A program made the translations under genes and the position numbers. This document shows positions 1 through 8,045 of a stretch of DNA of 8,045 nt, one piece after another (positions within the stretch are counted from its first letter, which is position 1; every line of letters starts with the position of its first letter). The DNA comes from Escherichia coli (GTDB taxonomy: Bacteria; Pseudomonadota; Gammaproteobacteria; Enterobacterales; Enterobacteriaceae). The notes under the pieces are model-generated. The model was not told the origin of the DNA. It saw only the letters and a list, made by a program, of their open reading frames with translations, and searched no databases. The stretch lies in the NCBI RefSeq assembly GCF_003334815.1, contig NZ_QOWO01000066.1; one strand, 5' to 3'.

Positions 1-78
1 GTTATCGTGAGAGTAATTCATCGGCACGTTAAATCATATCAGGCGTAATACCACAACCCTTAAGTTAGCGCTTATGGG
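1..78. repeat. Left terminal inverted repeat (78 bp), perfect reverse complement of 7968..8045
   Basis: Hand comparison: bases 1-78 (gttatcgtgagagtaattcatcggcacgtt...ttagcgcttatggg) are the exact reverse complement of the last 78 bases of the window. A further ~12 bp inward match imperfectly (about 7 of 12). Confidence 0.93.
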
Positions 79-124
79 GTAAAACCCCGCGTACTGAATT
101 GTGATGGTTTGGTCTCCTGCACCC

Positions 125-259
125 TTTTTTAATTTATATTGTTTATGTGAATATTATGCCTATGTTTATTATTCATATATATTACGGATGAAAATTATTT
201 GATTATTCATAATGTAAATATTTTATTGAATGATATATATCACAGATAATTTTTAATAT
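125..259 (+). promoter_or_regulatory. AT-rich putative promoter/silencing region upstream of cas3
   Basis: Very AT-rich tract with several TATA-like elements immediately upstream of the cas3 start. From established knowledge, enterobacterial type I-E cas promoters are AT-rich and H-NS repressed. No precise -35/-10 assignment could be made by eye. Confidence 0.4.
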
Positions 260-2959
260 ATGCGTAAATATCCTTTAAGTTTACTGAAGGATAAAAATAT
301 TGTGACTTTTTTTGATTTCTGGGGAAAAACCCGACGCGGCGAGAAAGACGGGGGCGACGACTATCACCTTCTTTGCTGGCATTCGCTGGATGTAGCCGCG
401 ATGGGCTATTTAATGGTTAAAAGAAATTGCTTCGGGCTGGCTGATTATTTTCGTCAATTAGGGATTTCTGACAAGGAACAGGCGGCTCAATTTTTCGCCT
501 GGTTGCTGTGCTGGCACGATATTGGAAAATTTGCCCGCTCTTTTCAACAACTTTACCTGCCCCCTGAACTCAAGATTCAGGAAGGTGCCAGAAAAAATTA
601 CGAAAAAATCTCTCATTCAACGCTGGGCTACTGGTTGTGGAATCATTATTTAAGTGAATGTCAGGAGTTACTTCCTTCATCTTCGCTCTCTCCGCGCAAA
701 CTTAGGCGAGTGATAGAAATGTGGATGCCCGTGACGACAGGGCATCATGGTCGGCCCCCTGATCGTATGGATGAATTGGATAATTTTCTGCCTGAAGACA
801 AAGCTGCAGCACGAGATTTTCTCCTTGAAATCAAACCACTGTTTCCGCTCATAGAGATCCCCGCATTCTGGGATGATGATGAGGGCATTGAACTTATAAA
901 ACACCTTTCCTGGTATATCTCTGCAACCGTCGTGCTCGCAGACTGGACGGGTTCGTCAACGCGATTTTTTCCACGCGTCGCACACCCAATGGATATTAAA
1001 GGTTACTGGCAGAAAACTTTAATTCAGGCTCAAAACGCCTTAACCGTCTTTCCTCTAAAAGCAAAAGTCGCGCCTTTCAACGGAATTAATACGCTGTTTC
1101 CTTTTATTGAGAATCCGACACCGTTACAGCAAAAGGTGCTGGATCTGGATATCAGCCAGCAAGGACCGCAGTTATTTATTCTGGAAGATGTGACTGGCGC
1201 AGGTAAAACAGAAGCGGCGCTTATCCTGGCGCACAGGTTGATAGCTGCGGGGAAAGCTCAGGGGCTGTTTTTTGGTCTGCCAACAATGGCAACGGCCAAT
1301 GCCATGTACGATCGGCTGGTCAAAACCTGGCTTGCTTTCTATTCGCCAGAATCCCGCCCCAGCCTGGTGCTGGCACATAGTGCCCGCACATTAATGGACC
1401 GCTTTAATGAATCACTCTGGTCTGGTGATTTAGTCGGGTCAGAAGAACCGGATGAACAAACGTTCAGTCAGGGATGTGCGGCCTGGTTTGCCGACAGTAA
1501 CAAGAAGGCGTTGCTGGCTGAAATTGGCGTCGGCACGCTGGATCAGGCGATGATGGCGGTGATGCCGTTCAAACATAATAATCTGCGGCTTCTGGGGCTG
1601 AGTAACAAAATCCTGCTGGCTGATGAGATCCACGCCTGTGACGCTTACATGTCGTGCATTCTTGAAGGGTTGATCGAGCGGCAGGCGCGTGGCGGAAACA
1701 GCGTTATTTTGCTTTCTGCCACGTTATCTCAACAGCAGCGCGACAAACTCGTCGCTGCCTTTGCGCGGGGTACAGAGGGCCAGCAAGAAGCTCCGTTCCT
1801 GGAAAAGGATGATTACCCCTGGCTGACGCATGTCACGAAATCCGATGTGAACTCACACCGGGTAGCGACGCGCAAAGACGTTGAGCGTAGCGTCAGCGTG
1901 GGTTGGCTTCATAGTGAACAAGAGTGTATTGCGCGTATCGAATCGGCGGTAAGTCAGGGGAAATGCATCGCCTGGATCCGGAATTCTGTCGATGACGCTA
2001 TTAAGGTTCATCGTCAGCTGCTTGCCCGCGGCGTCATTCCTGCTTCCAGCCTTTCACTTTTTCATAGCCGCTTTGCTTTTAGCGATCGCCAGCGAATTGA
2101 AACGGAAACGCTGGCACGCTTTGGTAAATATTGTAGTTTACAGAGAGCGTCGCAAGTCATTGTTTGTACACAAGTAATTGAGCAAAGCGTGGATATTGAC
2201 CTGGACGAAATGATCTCCGACCTGGCCCCTGTTGATTTGCTGATTCAGCGAGCAGGACGATTACAGCGGCATATCCGCGATATTAATGGTCAGTTAAAGC
2301 GTGACGGAAAGGACGAGCGTTCCCCCCCTGAATTGCTGATTCTGGCTCCCGTCTGGGACGACTCTCCTGGCGACGAATGGTTTGGCAGTGCCATGCGTAA
2401 CAGTGCATTTGTCTATCCCGATCATGGGCGAATCTGGCTGACGCAGCGTGTGCTGCGTGAGCAAGGTGCTATTCAGATGCCACACGCAGCCCGGCTTCTT
2501 ATTGAATCCGTCTACGGTGAGGACGTGGTAATGCCGGAAGGATTTGCCCGCAGCGAGCAGGAGCAAGTGGGCAAATATTACTGTGATCGCGCAATGGCTA
2601 AAAAGTTTGTGCTGAACTTCAGGCCCGGCTATGCCGCCAATATCAACGATTACCTCCCGGAAAAACTGTCGACACGTCTGGCTGAGGAGTCTGTTTCCCT
2701 GTGGCTGGCTACCTGTATTGACGGTGTGGTGAAGCCTTATGCCACCGGTGCTCACGCATGGGAAATGAGCGTTGTCAGAGTGCGCCGAAGCTGGTGGAAA
2801 AAACATCGGGATGAGTTTTCTTTACTGGAGGGAGAGGCGTTCAGGCTGTGGTGCATTGAACAGCGACAAGATCCGGAGATGGCAAACGTGATTTTAGTCA
2901 ACGATGACGAAAGTTGCGGGTATTCGGCTACGGAAGGATTGATTGGCAAGGTTGGTTGA
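260..2959 (+). CDS. cas3: Type I-E Cas3 HD nuclease / superfamily-2 helicase (899 aa)
   Basis: Long ORF with ATG at 260 and TGA at 2957-2959. N-terminal HD-domain motifs (HLLCWHSLDVAA, CWHDIGKF), Walker A (DVTGAGKTEAAL) and DExH-like box (LLADEIHACD). Size and position upstream of cse1 match type I-E cas3. No clear Shine-Dalgarno before the ATG, so the exact start is uncertain. Confidence 0.93.
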   Translation: MRKYPLSLLKDKNIVTFFDFWGKTRRGEKDGGDDYHLLCWHSLDVAAMGYLMVKRNCFGLADYFRQLGISDKEQAAQFFAWLLCWHDIGKFARSFQQLYLPPELKIQEGARKNYEKISHSTLGYWLWNHYLSECQELLPSSSLSPRKLRRVIEMWMPVTTGHHGRPPDRMDELDNFLPEDKAAARDFLLEIKPLFPLIEIPAFWDDDEGIELIKHLSWYISATVVLADWTGSSTRFFPRVAHPMDIKGYWQKTLIQAQNALTVFPLKAKVAPFNGINTLFPFIENPTPLQQKVLDLDISQQGPQLFILEDVTGAGKTEAALILAHRLIAAGKAQGLFFGLPTMATANAMYDRLVKTWLAFYSPESRPSLVLAHSARTLMDRFNESLWSGDLVGSEEPDEQTFSQGCAAWFADSNKKALLAEIGVGTLDQAMMAVMPFKHNNLRLLGLSNKILLADEIHACDAYMSCILEGLIERQARGGNSVILLSATLSQQQRDKLVAAFARGTEGQQEAPFLEKDDYPWLTHVTKSDVNSHRVATRKDVERSVSVGWLHSEQECIARIESAVSQGKCIAWIRNSVDDAIKVHRQLLARGVIPASSLSLFHSRFAFSDRQRIETETLARFGKYCSLQRASQVIVCTQVIEQSVDIDLDEMISDLAPVDLLIQRAGRLQRHIRDINGQLKRDGKDERSPPELLILAPVWDDSPGDEWFGSAMRNSAFVYPDHGRIWLTQRVLREQGAIQMPHAARLLIESVYGEDVVMPEGFARSEQEQVGKYYCDRAMAKKFVLNFRPGYAANINDYLPEKLSTRLAEESVSLWLATCIDGVVKPYATGAHAWEMSVVRVRRSWWKKHRDEFSLLEGEAFRLWCIEQRQDPEMANVILVNDDESCGYSATEGLIGKVG

Positions 2960-3056
2960 GATGTCTGCGACAGGACTCTCTGAATAGTTGATACACCGAA
3001 AAGGATGGAAAGATGGACAACCGACCTGGGATGGTCTTTTTTACGAGAGGATGCGT

Positions 3057-4619
3057 ATGAACTCGTTTTCACTTCTGACAACCCCGTGGTTGCCCGTTCG
3101 TTTTAAAGACGGAACGACAGGCAAACTGGCGCCAGTCGATCTGGCGGATGAAAATGTTGTCGATATTTCTGCGCCGCGGGCAGATCTCCAGGGTGCGGTA
3201 TGGCAGTTTTTGCTGGGGCTACTACAAACCAGCTTCGCGCCAAAAGATCATCGTCGTTGGGATGATATCTGGGAAGACGGACTGGAAGCTGAAAAGCTAC
3301 GGGAAGCATTGCAGTCATTAGAACATGCTTTCCAGTTTGGGCCAGATTCCCCTTCATTTATGCAGGATTTCGAGGCGCTCACCGGAGATAAAGTTCCGGT
3401 CGCTTCGCTACTGCCTGAGATTCCCGGCGCTCAAACAACGAAGTTTAATAAAGACCACTTTATCAAGCGTGGTGTAACGGAATACCTGTGCCCACATTGT
3501 TCTGCGTTAGCTCTGTTCTCCCTACAGTTGAATGCGCCGTCAGGTGGCAAAGGCTACCGCACCGGTTTACGCGGCGGTGGGCCGATGACCACTCTGATTG
3601 AATTACAGGAATATCAGGGTAATCAACAAACTCCCTTGTGGCGCAAACTGTGGATCAATGTCATGCCGCAGGATGAAGCCGATTTACCGCTACCCAAAAA
3701 ATTTGACGATCTGGTTTTCCCCTGGCTTGGCCCGACGCGCACCAGCGAACTGGCCGGTGCGGTGGTAACCGATGAGCAGGTCAATAAACTCCAGGCGTAC
3801 TGGGGAATGCCTCGCCGTATTCGTATTGATTTTAATACCACGACAGTCGGCAACTGCGATATTTGCGGTGAGCAGAGCGACGCGCTCCTGAGCCTGATGA
3901 CGACCAAAAATTACGGTGCGAATTATGCCATGTGGCAGCATCCCTTAACGCCTTACCGTGTACCACTTAAAGAGGGTGGCGAGTTTTACTCCGTTAAACC
4001 ACAACCGGGCGGTTTAATCTGGCGTGACTGGTTAGGCCTTATCGAAACGGGTAAATCAGAAAACAATACGGAACTTCCCGCGCTGGTGGTGAAACTCTTC
4101 AATGCCAGCAGTCTCAAGCAGGCAAAAGTGGGCCTGTGGGGATTTGGCTATGATTTCGACAACATGAAAGCGCGCTGTTGGTACGAACACCATTTCCCGC
4201 TGCTGCTCGATAAAAAAGAAGGTCAGATACCGAAGCTGCGGCTGGCTGCGCAAACAGCTTCACGGATTCTAAGTCTGTTACGGAGTGCATTGAAAGAAGC
4301 ATGGTTCTCCGATCCAAAAGGTGCAAGGGGTGATTTTAGTTTTGTGGATATCGACTTCTGGAACAAAACTCAGCATCGCTTTCTGAGGTTAGTGCGCCAA
4401 ATTGAAGAAGGTCAGGATGCGGATGAATTACTCAGCAAATGGAATAAGGAAATTTGGTTATTCGCACGTCAGGATTTTGACGAGCGTGTATTCACCAATC
4501 CTTATGAGCCCGTTGATCTGGAACGCGTCATGACCGCGCGCAAGAAATATTTTACAACATCGGCGGAGAAGCAAAGTGCTAAAGCCGCCAGGGAGAAAAA
4601 GCAGGAGGCTGCTGAATGA
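3057..4619 (+). CDS. cse1: Cascade large subunit Cse1/Cas8e (CasA), ~520 aa
   Basis: N-terminus MNSFSLLTTPWLPVRFKDG resembles the E. coli CasA N-terminus (..NWIPVR..) and an internal GLRGGGPMTT resembles CasA SGLRGGTPVTT, both as I recall them. The stop overlaps the cse2 start. Start chosen at ATG 3057, with GAGG six nt upstream; the ORF-track start at 2988 is a TTG, and ATG 3051 is also possible. Confidence 0.88.
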   Translation: MNSFSLLTTPWLPVRFKDGTTGKLAPVDLADENVVDISAPRADLQGAVWQFLLGLLQTSFAPKDHRRWDDIWEDGLEAEKLREALQSLEHAFQFGPDSPSFMQDFEALTGDKVPVASLLPEIPGAQTTKFNKDHFIKRGVTEYLCPHCSALALFSLQLNAPSGGKGYRTGLRGGGPMTTLIELQEYQGNQQTPLWRKLWINVMPQDEADLPLPKKFDDLVFPWLGPTRTSELAGAVVTDEQVNKLQAYWGMPRRIRIDFNTTTVGNCDICGEQSDALLSLMTTKNYGANYAMWQHPLTPYRVPLKEGGEFYSVKPQPGGLIWRDWLGLIETGKSENNTELPALVVKLFNASSLKQAKVGLWGFGYDFDNMKARCWYEHHFPLLLDKKEGQIPKLRLAAQTASRILSLLRSALKEAWFSDPKGARGDFSFVDIDFWNKTQHRFLRLVRQIEEGQDADELLSKWNKEIWLFARQDFDERVFTNPYEPVDLERVMTARKKYFTTSAEKQSAKAAREKKQEAAE

Positions 4620-5152
4620 GTATTGTAAAAGAGGAGCACAAAGCCACGCTGCGCAAATGGCACGAGGAATTGCAGGAGAAACGTGGCGAACGTGCCAGTC
4701 TGCGGCGTAGTACGACGGTTAATGATGTTTGTCTGACGGATGGATTTCGCCTGTTTCTGAAGAACAGACAAATAAAGTGGCAGGATGAACCTGAGTGGCG
4801 TATCACCGCACTGGCGCTGATAGCCGCAGTTAGCGCCAATGTTAAAGCTATTGATGAACGGCAGCCTTTTGCCGCGCAGCTGGCGGCGGTAATGTCAAAG
4901 GGGCGTTTTACTCGTCTGTCGGCAGTAAAAACACCGGATGAATTACTGCGCCAGTTACGCCGCGCAGTCAGATTATTAAACGGTTCCGTCAATCTTGACT
5001 CTCTGGCAGAGGGGGTCTTCCGTTGGTGCCAGGAGAGCGACGACCTGCTCAATCATCACCGCCGCCAGCAGCGGCCAACCGAATTTATCCGTATCCGCTG
5101 GGCGCTGGAATATTACCAGGCTGGCGACGCCGATAACGAACAAAATCAATAA
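4616..5152 (+). CDS. cse2: Cascade small subunit Cse2/Cas11 (CasB), 178 aa
   Basis: ATG at 4616 overlaps the cse1 stop (ATGA), with AGGAGG about 8 nt upstream. Size, basic/helical composition and position between cse1 and the cas7 start are as expected for Cse2. Assignment is mainly by synteny and size. Confidence 0.8.
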   Translation: MSIVKEEHKATLRKWHEELQEKRGERASLRRSTTVNDVCLTDGFRLFLKNRQIKWQDEPEWRITALALIAAVSANVKAIDERQPFAAQLAAVMSKGRFTRLSAVKTPDELLRQLRRAVRLLNGSVNLDSLAEGVFRWCQESDDLLNHHRRQQRPTEFIRIRWALEYYQAGDADNEQNQ

Positions 5153-5163
5153 AGGACTATCTC

Positions 5164-5208
5164 ATGACAACATTTATTCAGCTTCATTTGTTAAGGGGCG
5201 GCTTATGA
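5164..5208 (+). pseudogene. cas7: cas7 (casC/cse4) remnant: 14-codon stub MTTFIQLHLLRGGL*
   Basis: ATG at 5164 preceded by AAAGGA at the expected spacing. The first residues (MTTFIQLHLL) resemble the E. coli CasC N-terminus (MSNFINIHVL, as I recall it). The ORF ends after 14 codons at a TGA that overlaps the cas5 ATG. A native cas7 is about 360 codons. Confidence 0.5.
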
Positions 5209-5526
5209 GCCAATATCTGATTTTTCAGCTTCATGGGCCGATGGCGTCCTGGGGTGTCGATGCTCCAGGTGAAGTTCGTCATACCCATGAACTTCCTTCG
5301 CGCTCAGCATTGCTGGGGCTACTGGCTGCCGGGGTAGGGATTCGGCGTGATGATACCGAACGCTTAAACGCGTTTAATCGCCACTATTCACTGGTGGTTT
5401 GCGCCAGCCGTAACCCGCGCTGGGCACGGGATTATCACACGGTCCAGATGCCAAAAGAGGTGCGTAAAGCACGTTATTTCAGCCGTCGCGAAGAGTTGAG
5501 CGACCCTGATCCGCACGCACATTCCG

Positions 5527-6605
<1,079 letters not shown>

Positions 6606-6701
6606 GTTATCCGTTCTTTAAAAATAAGGAAATGTTTTAATTTAGTTGGTAGATTGTTGATGCGGAATAAATTTGTTTAAAAACAGTTATGTATGCTTAG
6701 T
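6606..6701 (+). promoter_or_regulatory. CRISPR leader (AT-rich, between cas2 and first repeat)
   Basis: 96-bp AT-rich segment immediately upstream of repeat 1 and downstream of cas2, the canonical I-E leader position that carries the array promoter and IHF/integration signals. Confidence 0.8.
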
Positions 6702-7949
6702 GTGTTCCCCGCGCCAGCGGGGATAAACCGAACATTAAATTGCCGTGCTGGATGAATCGCGGGTGTTCCCCGCGCCAGCGGGGATAAACCCTGGATCAGC
6801 TGGTTCAATCGTTTACAGCACTGGTGTTCCCCGCGCCAGCGGGGATAAACCGGCAGTAAATTATTTGACCTCGTTGATAATCCCGTGTTCCCCGCGCCAG
6901 CGGGGATAAACCGCCGGTGCAACTGATATTGATAAACGTCGACTCGTGTTCCCCGCGCCAGCGGGGATAAACCGACACCCGACCGCTAACCGATTTCGTT
7001 ACAGTAGTGTTCCCCGCGCCAGCGGGGATAAACCGTGTATCACCGAAAGAATGGTTTGACGCGCAGGGTGTTCCCCGCGCCAGCGGGGATAAACCGACGT
7101 CTATCATTTTCAGTACAAGCTGGGTTTTGTGTTCCCCGCGCCAGCGGGGATAAACCGGACGATCCCGAGATTCACAGAGTTACAACTAAGTGTTCCCCGC
7201 GCCAGCGGGGATAAACCGGAAATTTTCACATGGATTGTAGCCCTGTATATGTGTTCCCCGCGCCAGCGGGGATAAACCGGCCAGGCGGTCGGATTAGGTG
7301 CAAATCAAAATGTGTTCCCCGCGCCAGCGGGGATAAACCGCGCTGGCGGTGCGAGTGCTGGAGGCGCTGAAAGTGTTCCCCGCGCCAGCGGGGATAAACC
7401 GCAGGAGACGGCCAGCCGGAACGGCGGCGGCGTGTGTTCCCCGCGCCAGCGGGGATAAACCGTCGGGCGGCTCTGGTGTTCCTGACATGGCGGCGTGTTC
7501 CCCGCGCCAGCGGGGATAAACCGAATTTGCATCACATAGGGGCGAGGCTCAGTGAGTGTTCCCCGCGCCAGCGGGGATAAACCGTTCTTGCGGGTGTTGC
7601 AAATATTCTCCACGTAGTGTTCCCCGCGCCAGCGGGGATAAACCGCCTGTTTTTTGTGCGGGGAATTATGGGGGAATGTGTTCCCCGCGCCAGCGGGGAT
7701 AAACCGTTATACTGATTTTGATTTGTATTTCGGTCGCTGTGTTCCCCGCGCCAGCGGGGATAAACCGACACGCCCTGCCGTATTTACTGACGCGCAGGAG
7801 TGTTCCCCGCGCCAGCGGGGATAAACCGCCGCGCAAATCCAGCGAGCCGCCGACGCTCAGTGTTCCCCGCGCCAGCGGGGATAAACCGTTGCAAACCGTG
7901 GCAAACGCAATTAACAAAAAGTGTTCCCCGCGCCAGCGGGGATAAACCG
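6702..7949 (+). CRISPR. Type I-E CRISPR array: 21 x 29-bp repeats (GTGTTCCCCGCGCCAGCGGGGATAAACCG), 20 unique spacers
   Basis: Repeat starts at 6702, 6763, 6824 and so on at 61-bp period to 7800, then 7860 and 7921. Spacers are 32 bp except spacer 19 (7829-7859, 31 bp). Repeat 2 ends in C instead of G (6791). The repeat has the CCCCGC/GCGGGG stem and ATAAACCG 5-prime handle typical of I-E crRNA. Transcribed on + from the leader, so the newest spacer is 6731-6762. Confidence 0.97.
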
Positions 7950-7967
7950 AGTTAAGAGGGGGTTTTT

Positions 7968-8045
7968 CCCATAAGCGCTAACTTAAGGGTTGTGGTATTA
8001 CGCCTGATATGATTTAACGTGCCGATGAATTACTCTCACGATAAC
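7968..8045. repeat. Right terminal inverted repeat (78 bp), reverse complement of 1..78
   Basis: Hand comparison shows an exact reverse-complement match to bases 1-78. It begins 18 bp after the last CRISPR repeat. Confidence 0.93.

Follow-up and report, generated by a model that had tools for sequence, protein, structure and literature searches.

The degraded type I-E locus

The window analysed here, a stretch of 8,045 nucleotides of Escherichia coli DNA, carries a type I-E CRISPR-Cas locus in which a run of cas genes is followed by a leader and a CRISPR array, with an IS421 end at either extremity (Table 1). As a whole the window is 94-98.5% identical to the E. coli iap/cas type I-E locus and 97-99.98% identical to the loci of strains ETEC4073, TO6 and 52F4, which lie between hok/cysH and iap, such that, judged by these relatives, it represents the reference chromosomal locus (cysH/hok to iap); positions 1-5509 are 99.98% identical to strain 52F4. 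The array corresponds to CRISPR1 of Touchon & Rocha 2010, that is, CRISPR-I of K-12. In its 29-bp repeat, its 61-bp period, a leader adjoining cas2e and a cas3-casABCDE-cas1-cas2 gene order, it resembles the version of the array found in IAI1, TO6, ETEC4073 and 52F4.

Table 1. Coordinates of the features discussed, within the 8,045-nucleotide window.
Feature	Positions	Strand	Description
IS421 end, copy 1	1-88	-	inverted copy of 7959-8045; upstream of cas3
cas3	260-2959	+	intact ORF, 899 aa; full-length by NCBIfam
casA/cse1	3057-4619	+	520 aa; TIGR02547, 610 bits
casB/cse2	4616-5152	+	178 aa; full-length by NCBIfam
cas7e remnant	5164-5194	+	first 31 nt; other 1022 bp deleted
cas5e remnant	5205-5509	+	5' 305 nt only; Cas5e profile 1-95 of 230
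cas1e	5510-6315	+	start and roughly first 39 codons absent; Cas1e profile from position 43
cas2e	6312-6605	+	97 aa; full-length by NCBIfam
leader, AT-rich, cas2e to repeat 1	6606-6701	+	96 bp; 26% G+C, against 51% in the window
type I-E CRISPR array	6702-7949	+	21 repeats, 20 complete spacers
repeat 2	6763-6791	+	sole variant repeat; final base (6791) C instead of G
repeat 19	7800-7828	+	complete 29-bp consensus
predicted mature crRNA, spacer 19	7821-7880	+	60 nt against the usual 61; placed by the established Cas6e cut site
spacer 19, CCGCGCAAATCCAGCGAGCCGCCGACGCTCA	7829-7859	+	31 bp (enumeration)
repeat 20	7860-7888	+	complete 29-bp consensus; first base G
spacer 21 left stump, AGTTAAGAG + GGGGTTTTTCCC	7950-7970	+	interrupted by IS421; not trailer
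IS421 end, copy 2	7959-8045	+	inserted in spacer 21

Where the window departs from these relatives is in its own combination of spacers and in what its cas operon has lost, namely cas7e, as in 52F4, plus the 3' end of cas5e, all of cas6e and the 5' end of cas1e. By comparison with intact relatives, two deletions are responsible. The one that removed cas7e, of 1022 bp, has its junction at 5192-5194 with a TAA microhomology and is common to 52F4. The other, of 1186 bp, took everything from the cas5e 3' end to the cas1e 5' end, leaving a junction at 5508-5509 with a GA microhomology, and was found in none of 5426 complete E. coli genomes; across it the cas5e remnant continues out of frame into cas1e sequence, its ORF ending at 5630. 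The array is accordingly not accompanied by a complete type I-E cas operon, cas7e and cas6e being absent and cas5e and cas1e partial. Since Cas7, Cas6e and an intact Cas1 are missing, Cascade cannot form, crRNA cannot be processed and new spacers cannot be acquired. In other words, the locus is type I-E by descent, its operon is degraded, and the array in this genome is an inactive, frozen relic. In this regard, the cas-operon deletions tell more of the biology of the strain than the length of a spacer does.

Lesions of the operon are also present in close relatives of the window, where they comprise a frameshift in cas3 (ETEC4073), internal stop codons in casA (TO6) and cas7e (NCTC11121), and a frameshift in cas6e in both ABWA45 and ECONIH5. 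Together with the deletions in the window, these independent lesions point to a type I-E system that would have decayed repeatedly within this strain group.

The array and its 31-bp spacer

Pattern enumeration gives 21 copies of the 29-bp repeat GTGTTCCCCGCGCCAGCGGGGATAAACCG, of which all except one are identical. They are type I-E consensus repeats with a 7-bp GC stem and a tetraloop, the repeat folding into a CCCCGCG/CGCGGGG hairpin at -15.2 kcal/mol (z = -3.2). A search of the repeats against Rfam 15 returned no family at the gathering threshold and, at E <= 1, only a chance-level Chlorobi-1 match and no CRISPR-repeat family; Tandem Repeats Finder picked up the array in fragments only and its output was left aside. 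The terminal C of the single variant, repeat 2, recurs in ETEC4073, TO6 and 52F4. In type I-E systems the final base of a repeat derives from the PAM of the next spacer, and this C suggests that the PAM of the spacer 2 protospacer may have ended in C, not G.

The position of the AT-rich leader fixes the polarity of the array, with spacer 1 as the latest addition and the older spacers towards the high numbers, and the oldest spacers, at the distal end, are indeed those common to other strains. The spacers are unique and recur at a 61-bp period, with a single departure: 19 of the 20 are 32 bp long and spacer 19 is 31 bp. Both claims of the earlier note on this point, that spacer 19 is one base short and that the period here is 60 rather than 61 bp, were borne out exactly by enumeration, the repeats on its two sides starting at 7800 and 7860 and all other periods being 61 bp. 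Both of these repeats are full-length consensus copies. An ungapped repeat search correspondingly returned a 61-bp spacing 17 times and then one of 121 (= 60 + 61), and array-finding software that holds to a strict 61-bp period will break at spacer 19 in the same way. The 31-bp length is a direct reading of the sequence in which no statistical signal is involved.

Distribution and age of spacer 19

A comparison with homologous arrays, which the earlier note had proposed, bears the short unit out. A 51-nt query made of spacer 19 and 10 nt of each flanking repeat matched 223 complete E. coli genomes, 222 at 100% and the remaining one with a single substitution in the unit and no change of length. 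By sensitive blastn, 224 of the 5426 complete E. coli genomes (~4%), IAI1 among them, carry the 31-mer without mismatch. When a G was added at the spacer/repeat junction to construct a 32-bp version, which would read ...GACGCTCAG then GTGTTCC, none of the 5426 genomes matched it exactly, and 223 genomes match this construct at 57/58 with a single one-base gap.

The order of the neighbouring spacers is equally stable. Spacer 20 always comes next after spacer 19 in the arrays extracted, and the two are common, in the same order, to the window, IAI1, TO6, ETEC4073 and 52F4. The IAI1 array ends ..23,19,20,25,26, and its leader-proximal spacers all differ from those of the window; ETEC4073, TO6, 52F4 and the window have leader-proximal spacer sets other than that of IAI1, with spacer 19 leader-distal. 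Touchon and Rocha (PMC2886076) described such a pattern in E. coli, with old, conserved spacers on the trailer side, and the distribution of spacer 19 fits it. The 31-bp form of spacer 19 is thus real, heritable, old and fixed; it is already in public genomes, IAI1 for example, and is nothing new in kind.

A length that is invariant among carriers separates strains no further than possession of the spacer already does. The usefulness as a strain marker that the earlier note saw in the 31-bp form is not upheld, since this form is identical in all carriers (224 of 5426) and no 32-bp allele with the extra junction G was found. For CRISPR typing, the 31-bp length is to be treated as a fixed trait of an ancestral spacer and not as a polymorphism.

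Related phage genes

No exact protospacer of spacer 19 was found in the phage, plasmid, E. coli genome, IMG/VR, JGI metagenome or GTDB collections. By blastn of the 31-mer, the best match among 50,697 phage records is in Edwardsiella phage Edno5 (27/31, E = 0.02), and among the 5426 E. coli genomes the one match beyond the CRISPR copies, at 26/31, lies in a lambdoid prophage of E. coli ET791. The 72,556 plasmids gave chance-level matches only, in unrelated GC-rich replicons. Pattern scans of IMG/VR found nothing, either with a 26-nt core plus a non-repeat flank or with the 22-nt core common to a spacer of strain 06-00048 (see below); IMG/VR contigs do also give ungapped 31-nt alignments to spacer 19. 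In the JGI metagenomes, an exact-core scan and a codon-wobble-degenerate scan that kept the spacer-specific AAATC were both empty, and a family-level degenerate pattern run over 100,044 species genomes gave one distant match, in Thalassovita.

The Edno5 and ET791 matches fall in an early-region gene near exonuclease and repressor genes, which encodes tandem 20-residue units (...GLSVGGSLDLRGTGITALPD...). Searches for the identity of this gene returned PHROGs families of unknown function only and, in Pfam, sub-threshold LRR_14 matches only. The units of the tandem-repeat family end ...GAGCCNCCGACGCT[C/G]A and then GGCC. We infer from these matches that spacer 19 would derive from this gene family of temperate enterobacterial phages.

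A second spacer bears on the same family. In strain 06-00048, the last spacer extracted from the iap/cas array (GGGTGATTACCGTCGGCGGCTGGCTGGATTTG) and spacer 19 in reverse complement agree at all but one of 22 overlapping nt. The two are distinct spacers, on opposite strands and offset by a few bases; that of 06-00048 is the oldest extracted from its array, with one further spacer and a degenerate terminal repeat beyond it. Being independent of spacer 19, the 06-00048 spacer means that the phage repeat-protein gene family has been sampled at least twice by E. coli arrays. Blastn of this overlapping spacer against the phages gave no useful match. The distant match mentioned above, in Thalassovita litoralis (NZ_FXTO01000031.1, ~776-990, minus strand), is a member of the tandem-repeat family with 6-7 mismatches to spacer 19; as the host is a marine alphaproteobacterium, the gene family extends well past enterobacterial phages.

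Position of the missing base

Thirty repeat units from nine loci can be aligned to spacer 19 at <=7 mismatches, all of them ungapped and with both ends in register; the Edno5 alignment, for instance, is exact over 7 bases at its 5' end and over 16 at its 3' end, the two stretches sharing one register. Alignments that are ungapped and collinear imply that the missing base is terminal and disfavour an internal deletion, and on these homologues the base is most likely to be missing from the PAM-distal spacer/repeat junction. Immediately upstream of the match, G is present in 30/30 units, which fits a PAM-derived last base of the repeat. The base that follows the matched 31 nt is likewise G in 30/30 units and equals the first base of repeat 20; this +32 G is complementary to the C that opens a conserved Leu codon, CTG, in the motif LSVGGSLDLRG.

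Because the +32 G is the same base as the first G of the repeat, a short prespacer and the loss of a junction G yield the same product, ...GCTCA followed by GTGTTCC. The lost base could, on this evidence, belong either to spacer 19 or to repeat 20. In other words, sequence alone does not distinguish a 'short spacer' from a 'short repeat' whenever the protospacer is followed by the base with which the repeat begins.

Upstream of the matched 31 nt the homologues have GTG, not AAG. Two further readings were considered and are unsupported: acquisition in the flipped orientation, as no homologue has CTT downstream of the matched 31 nt, and an AAG PAM slipped by +1, as no homologue has AAGG upstream.

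Frequency of off-size spacers

In a sample of 126 distinct natural spacers, drawn from both type I-E arrays of 10 E. coli genomes together with the window, 122 are 32 bp, three are 33 bp and one, spacer 19, is 31 bp. A 33-bp prespacer corresponds to a 32-bp spacer plus the PAM-derived G. A review puts the share of 32-bp spacers in E. coli at 95%, the lengths ranging over 31-34 bp (PMC10011333), and deep sequencing of primed adaptation gave prespacers of 33 bp in 98.6% of cases, 32 bp in 0.3% and 34 bp in 1.1% (bioRxiv 10.1101/2020.02.10.942821). The natural sample and the experiment agree in order of magnitude and in their asymmetry, 33-bp spacers being commoner than 31-bp ones, and this agreement means that acquisition error alone accounts for the natural frequency. 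About 3-5% of natural type I-E spacers in E. coli depart from 32 bp, a share also put at 1-3%, and spacer 19 is one ordinary example; at 3-5%, about every second array of 20 spacers would be expected to contain one or more.

Spacer 19 resembles the short prespacers of that experiment (bioRxiv 10.1101/2020.02.10.942821) in being one nucleotide under the canonical length, with intact repeats, and in belonging to a rare class. The experimental prespacers, however, mostly have an AAG PAM and a PAM-distal base that is demonstrably absent, whereas the homologues of spacer 19 have GTG upstream and its junction base is ambiguous.

Origin of the short spacer

In type I-E adaptation, the length of the prespacer is fixed by the Cas1-Cas2 complex together with trimming of the ends, and the 3'-OH at the PAM-distal end of the prespacer attacks the leader-repeat junction. 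Against this background, spacer 19 would have been acquired long ago from a temperate-phage gene for a 20-residue tandem-repeat protein, Cas1-Cas2 having integrated a 32-bp prespacer (the PAM-derived G plus 31 nt) instead of one of 33 bp. Such a prespacer, one nucleotide short at its PAM-distal end, is a known minor product of Cas1-Cas2, and faithful copying since its acquisition would have given the same 60-bp unit in every carrier. We consider this the probable origin of spacer 19, in that it invokes a measured product whose rate explains the natural frequency, and we infer that the shortening would have taken place at acquisition and not afterwards. The uniformity of the carriers does not itself decide the matter: that all 224 are 31 bp, and that 0 of 5426 genomes have the 32-bp form with the extra G, fits an origin at acquisition or an early deletion alike, fixation in all carriers being equally expected if a base was deleted soon after acquisition.

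The principal rival is that a canonical 33-bp prespacer ending in G was integrated and that one G of the GG which it formed with repeat 20 was lost. This could have come about through a nucleophilic attack at the leader-repeat junction that fell one base into the repeat or, at some later time, through replication slippage or a point deletion that was fixed before the carrier lineages diverged. The proposal has substance, since the G that follows the 31 matched bases in 30/30 units and the G with which the repeat starts give it an exact fit, and since neighbouring spacers did mutate after acquisition (three 1-nt variants of spacer 18 and two variants of spacer 2). Set against it, the +32 G is taken from homologues that are <=27/31 identical and not from the true source, and the related target deduced from the 06-00048 spacer has T at +32; no 32-bp allele survives among the 5426 genomes, and the measured errors of prespacer length suffice to explain how often 31- and 33-bp spacers occur in nature. 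We know of no measured off-by-one rate for attack at the leader-repeat junction. The second attack is set by two rulers in the repeat, but the first is positioned by the leader-repeat junction itself (PMC5039180), which speaks against a misplaced first attack. Taken as a whole, the loss of a junction G in one of these ways is a possibility that deserves to be kept in mind, albeit a lesser one; that the 60-bp unit is more specifically a natural fossil of off-by-one integration at the leader-repeat junction, in which the PAM-distal G of the prespacer may replace the first base of the repeat, is unlikely. If true, such a fossil would document, in nature, an imprecise first step of integration rather than imprecise sizing of the prespacer, and would be of modest interest.

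The two other explanations carry far less weight. A one-base deletion inside an originally 32-bp spacer is conceivable in principle, but it would shift one end of the spacer by a base, and the 30 units in nine loci are collinear over 31 nt, making it very improbable. The earlier note had described a minor size variant, due either to imprecise acquisition or to a one-base deletion; acquisition-type shortening or the loss of one base both stand, whereas a deletion internal to the spacer does not, given the ungapped alignments to the phage genes. That note had also left room for a sequencing error as the ground on which the short spacer might be refuted. An error of sequencing or assembly in this genome is, however, ruled out for practical purposes by the identical 60-bp unit in 222-224 independent complete genomes, which span many hosts, countries and platforms and lack the 61-bp form throughout.

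Consequences for the crRNA

The sites of Cas6e processing are well established for type I-E systems. From these, the crRNA of spacer 19 is predicted to consist of an 8-nt 5' handle (AUAAACCG), the 31-nt spacer and a 21-nt 3' handle ending in the repeat hairpin, and the hairpin is retained when this predicted crRNA is folded. Work with crRNAs of altered length showed that Cas6e cuts irrespective of how long the spacer is, and that spacers of >20 nt, shortened by <=12 nt, still give interference (PMC5159557). By analogy, Cascade would be expected to tolerate a 60-nt crRNA, and the loss of one PAM-distal base should be near neutral. The likeness to those engineered crRNAs of E. coli Cascade lies in a spacer of less than 32 nt; the difference is that they carry deliberate 6-18-nt truncations and were studied with active cas genes (PMC5159557), whereas spacer 19 has a natural 1-nt shortening and resides in a strain without Cascade. 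Indeed, since cas6e is deleted, the spacer 19 crRNA cannot be made in this genome.

IS421 and the related loci

The array of the window is cut short at its distal end by IS421. In TO6 and ETEC4073 the IS junctions allow the interrupted 32-bp spacer to be rebuilt as AGTTAAGAG-GGGGTTTTTCCCC-ACCGTTCAGG, with a target duplication of 12-13 bp, the split-spacer junctions lying at 39340-39370 of the extracted TO6 locus and 13010-13040 of that of ETEC4073. The array of these relatives runs on past IS421, in TO6 with spacers 32/24/25/26/33, and because of this continuation spacer 19 was not truly the second-last spacer of the ancestral array. TO6 also retains three spacers between spacer 20 and IS421 which have been lost in the window, ETEC4073 and 52F4.

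In 52F4, the IS421-bounded segment of cas genes and array is inverted relative to TO6 and ETEC4073, such that iap adjoins cas3 and not the array. This arrangement suggests that recombination may have taken place between the inverted IS421 copies.

Small changes are also seen within the shared spacers. Spacer 18 (7768-7799) has single-base variants in TO6 and 52F4, that of TO6 being tandemly duplicated, and spacer 2 (6792-6823) has a one-base variant in TO6. From these variants it follows that point mutation and duplication of units do occur in otherwise static arrays.
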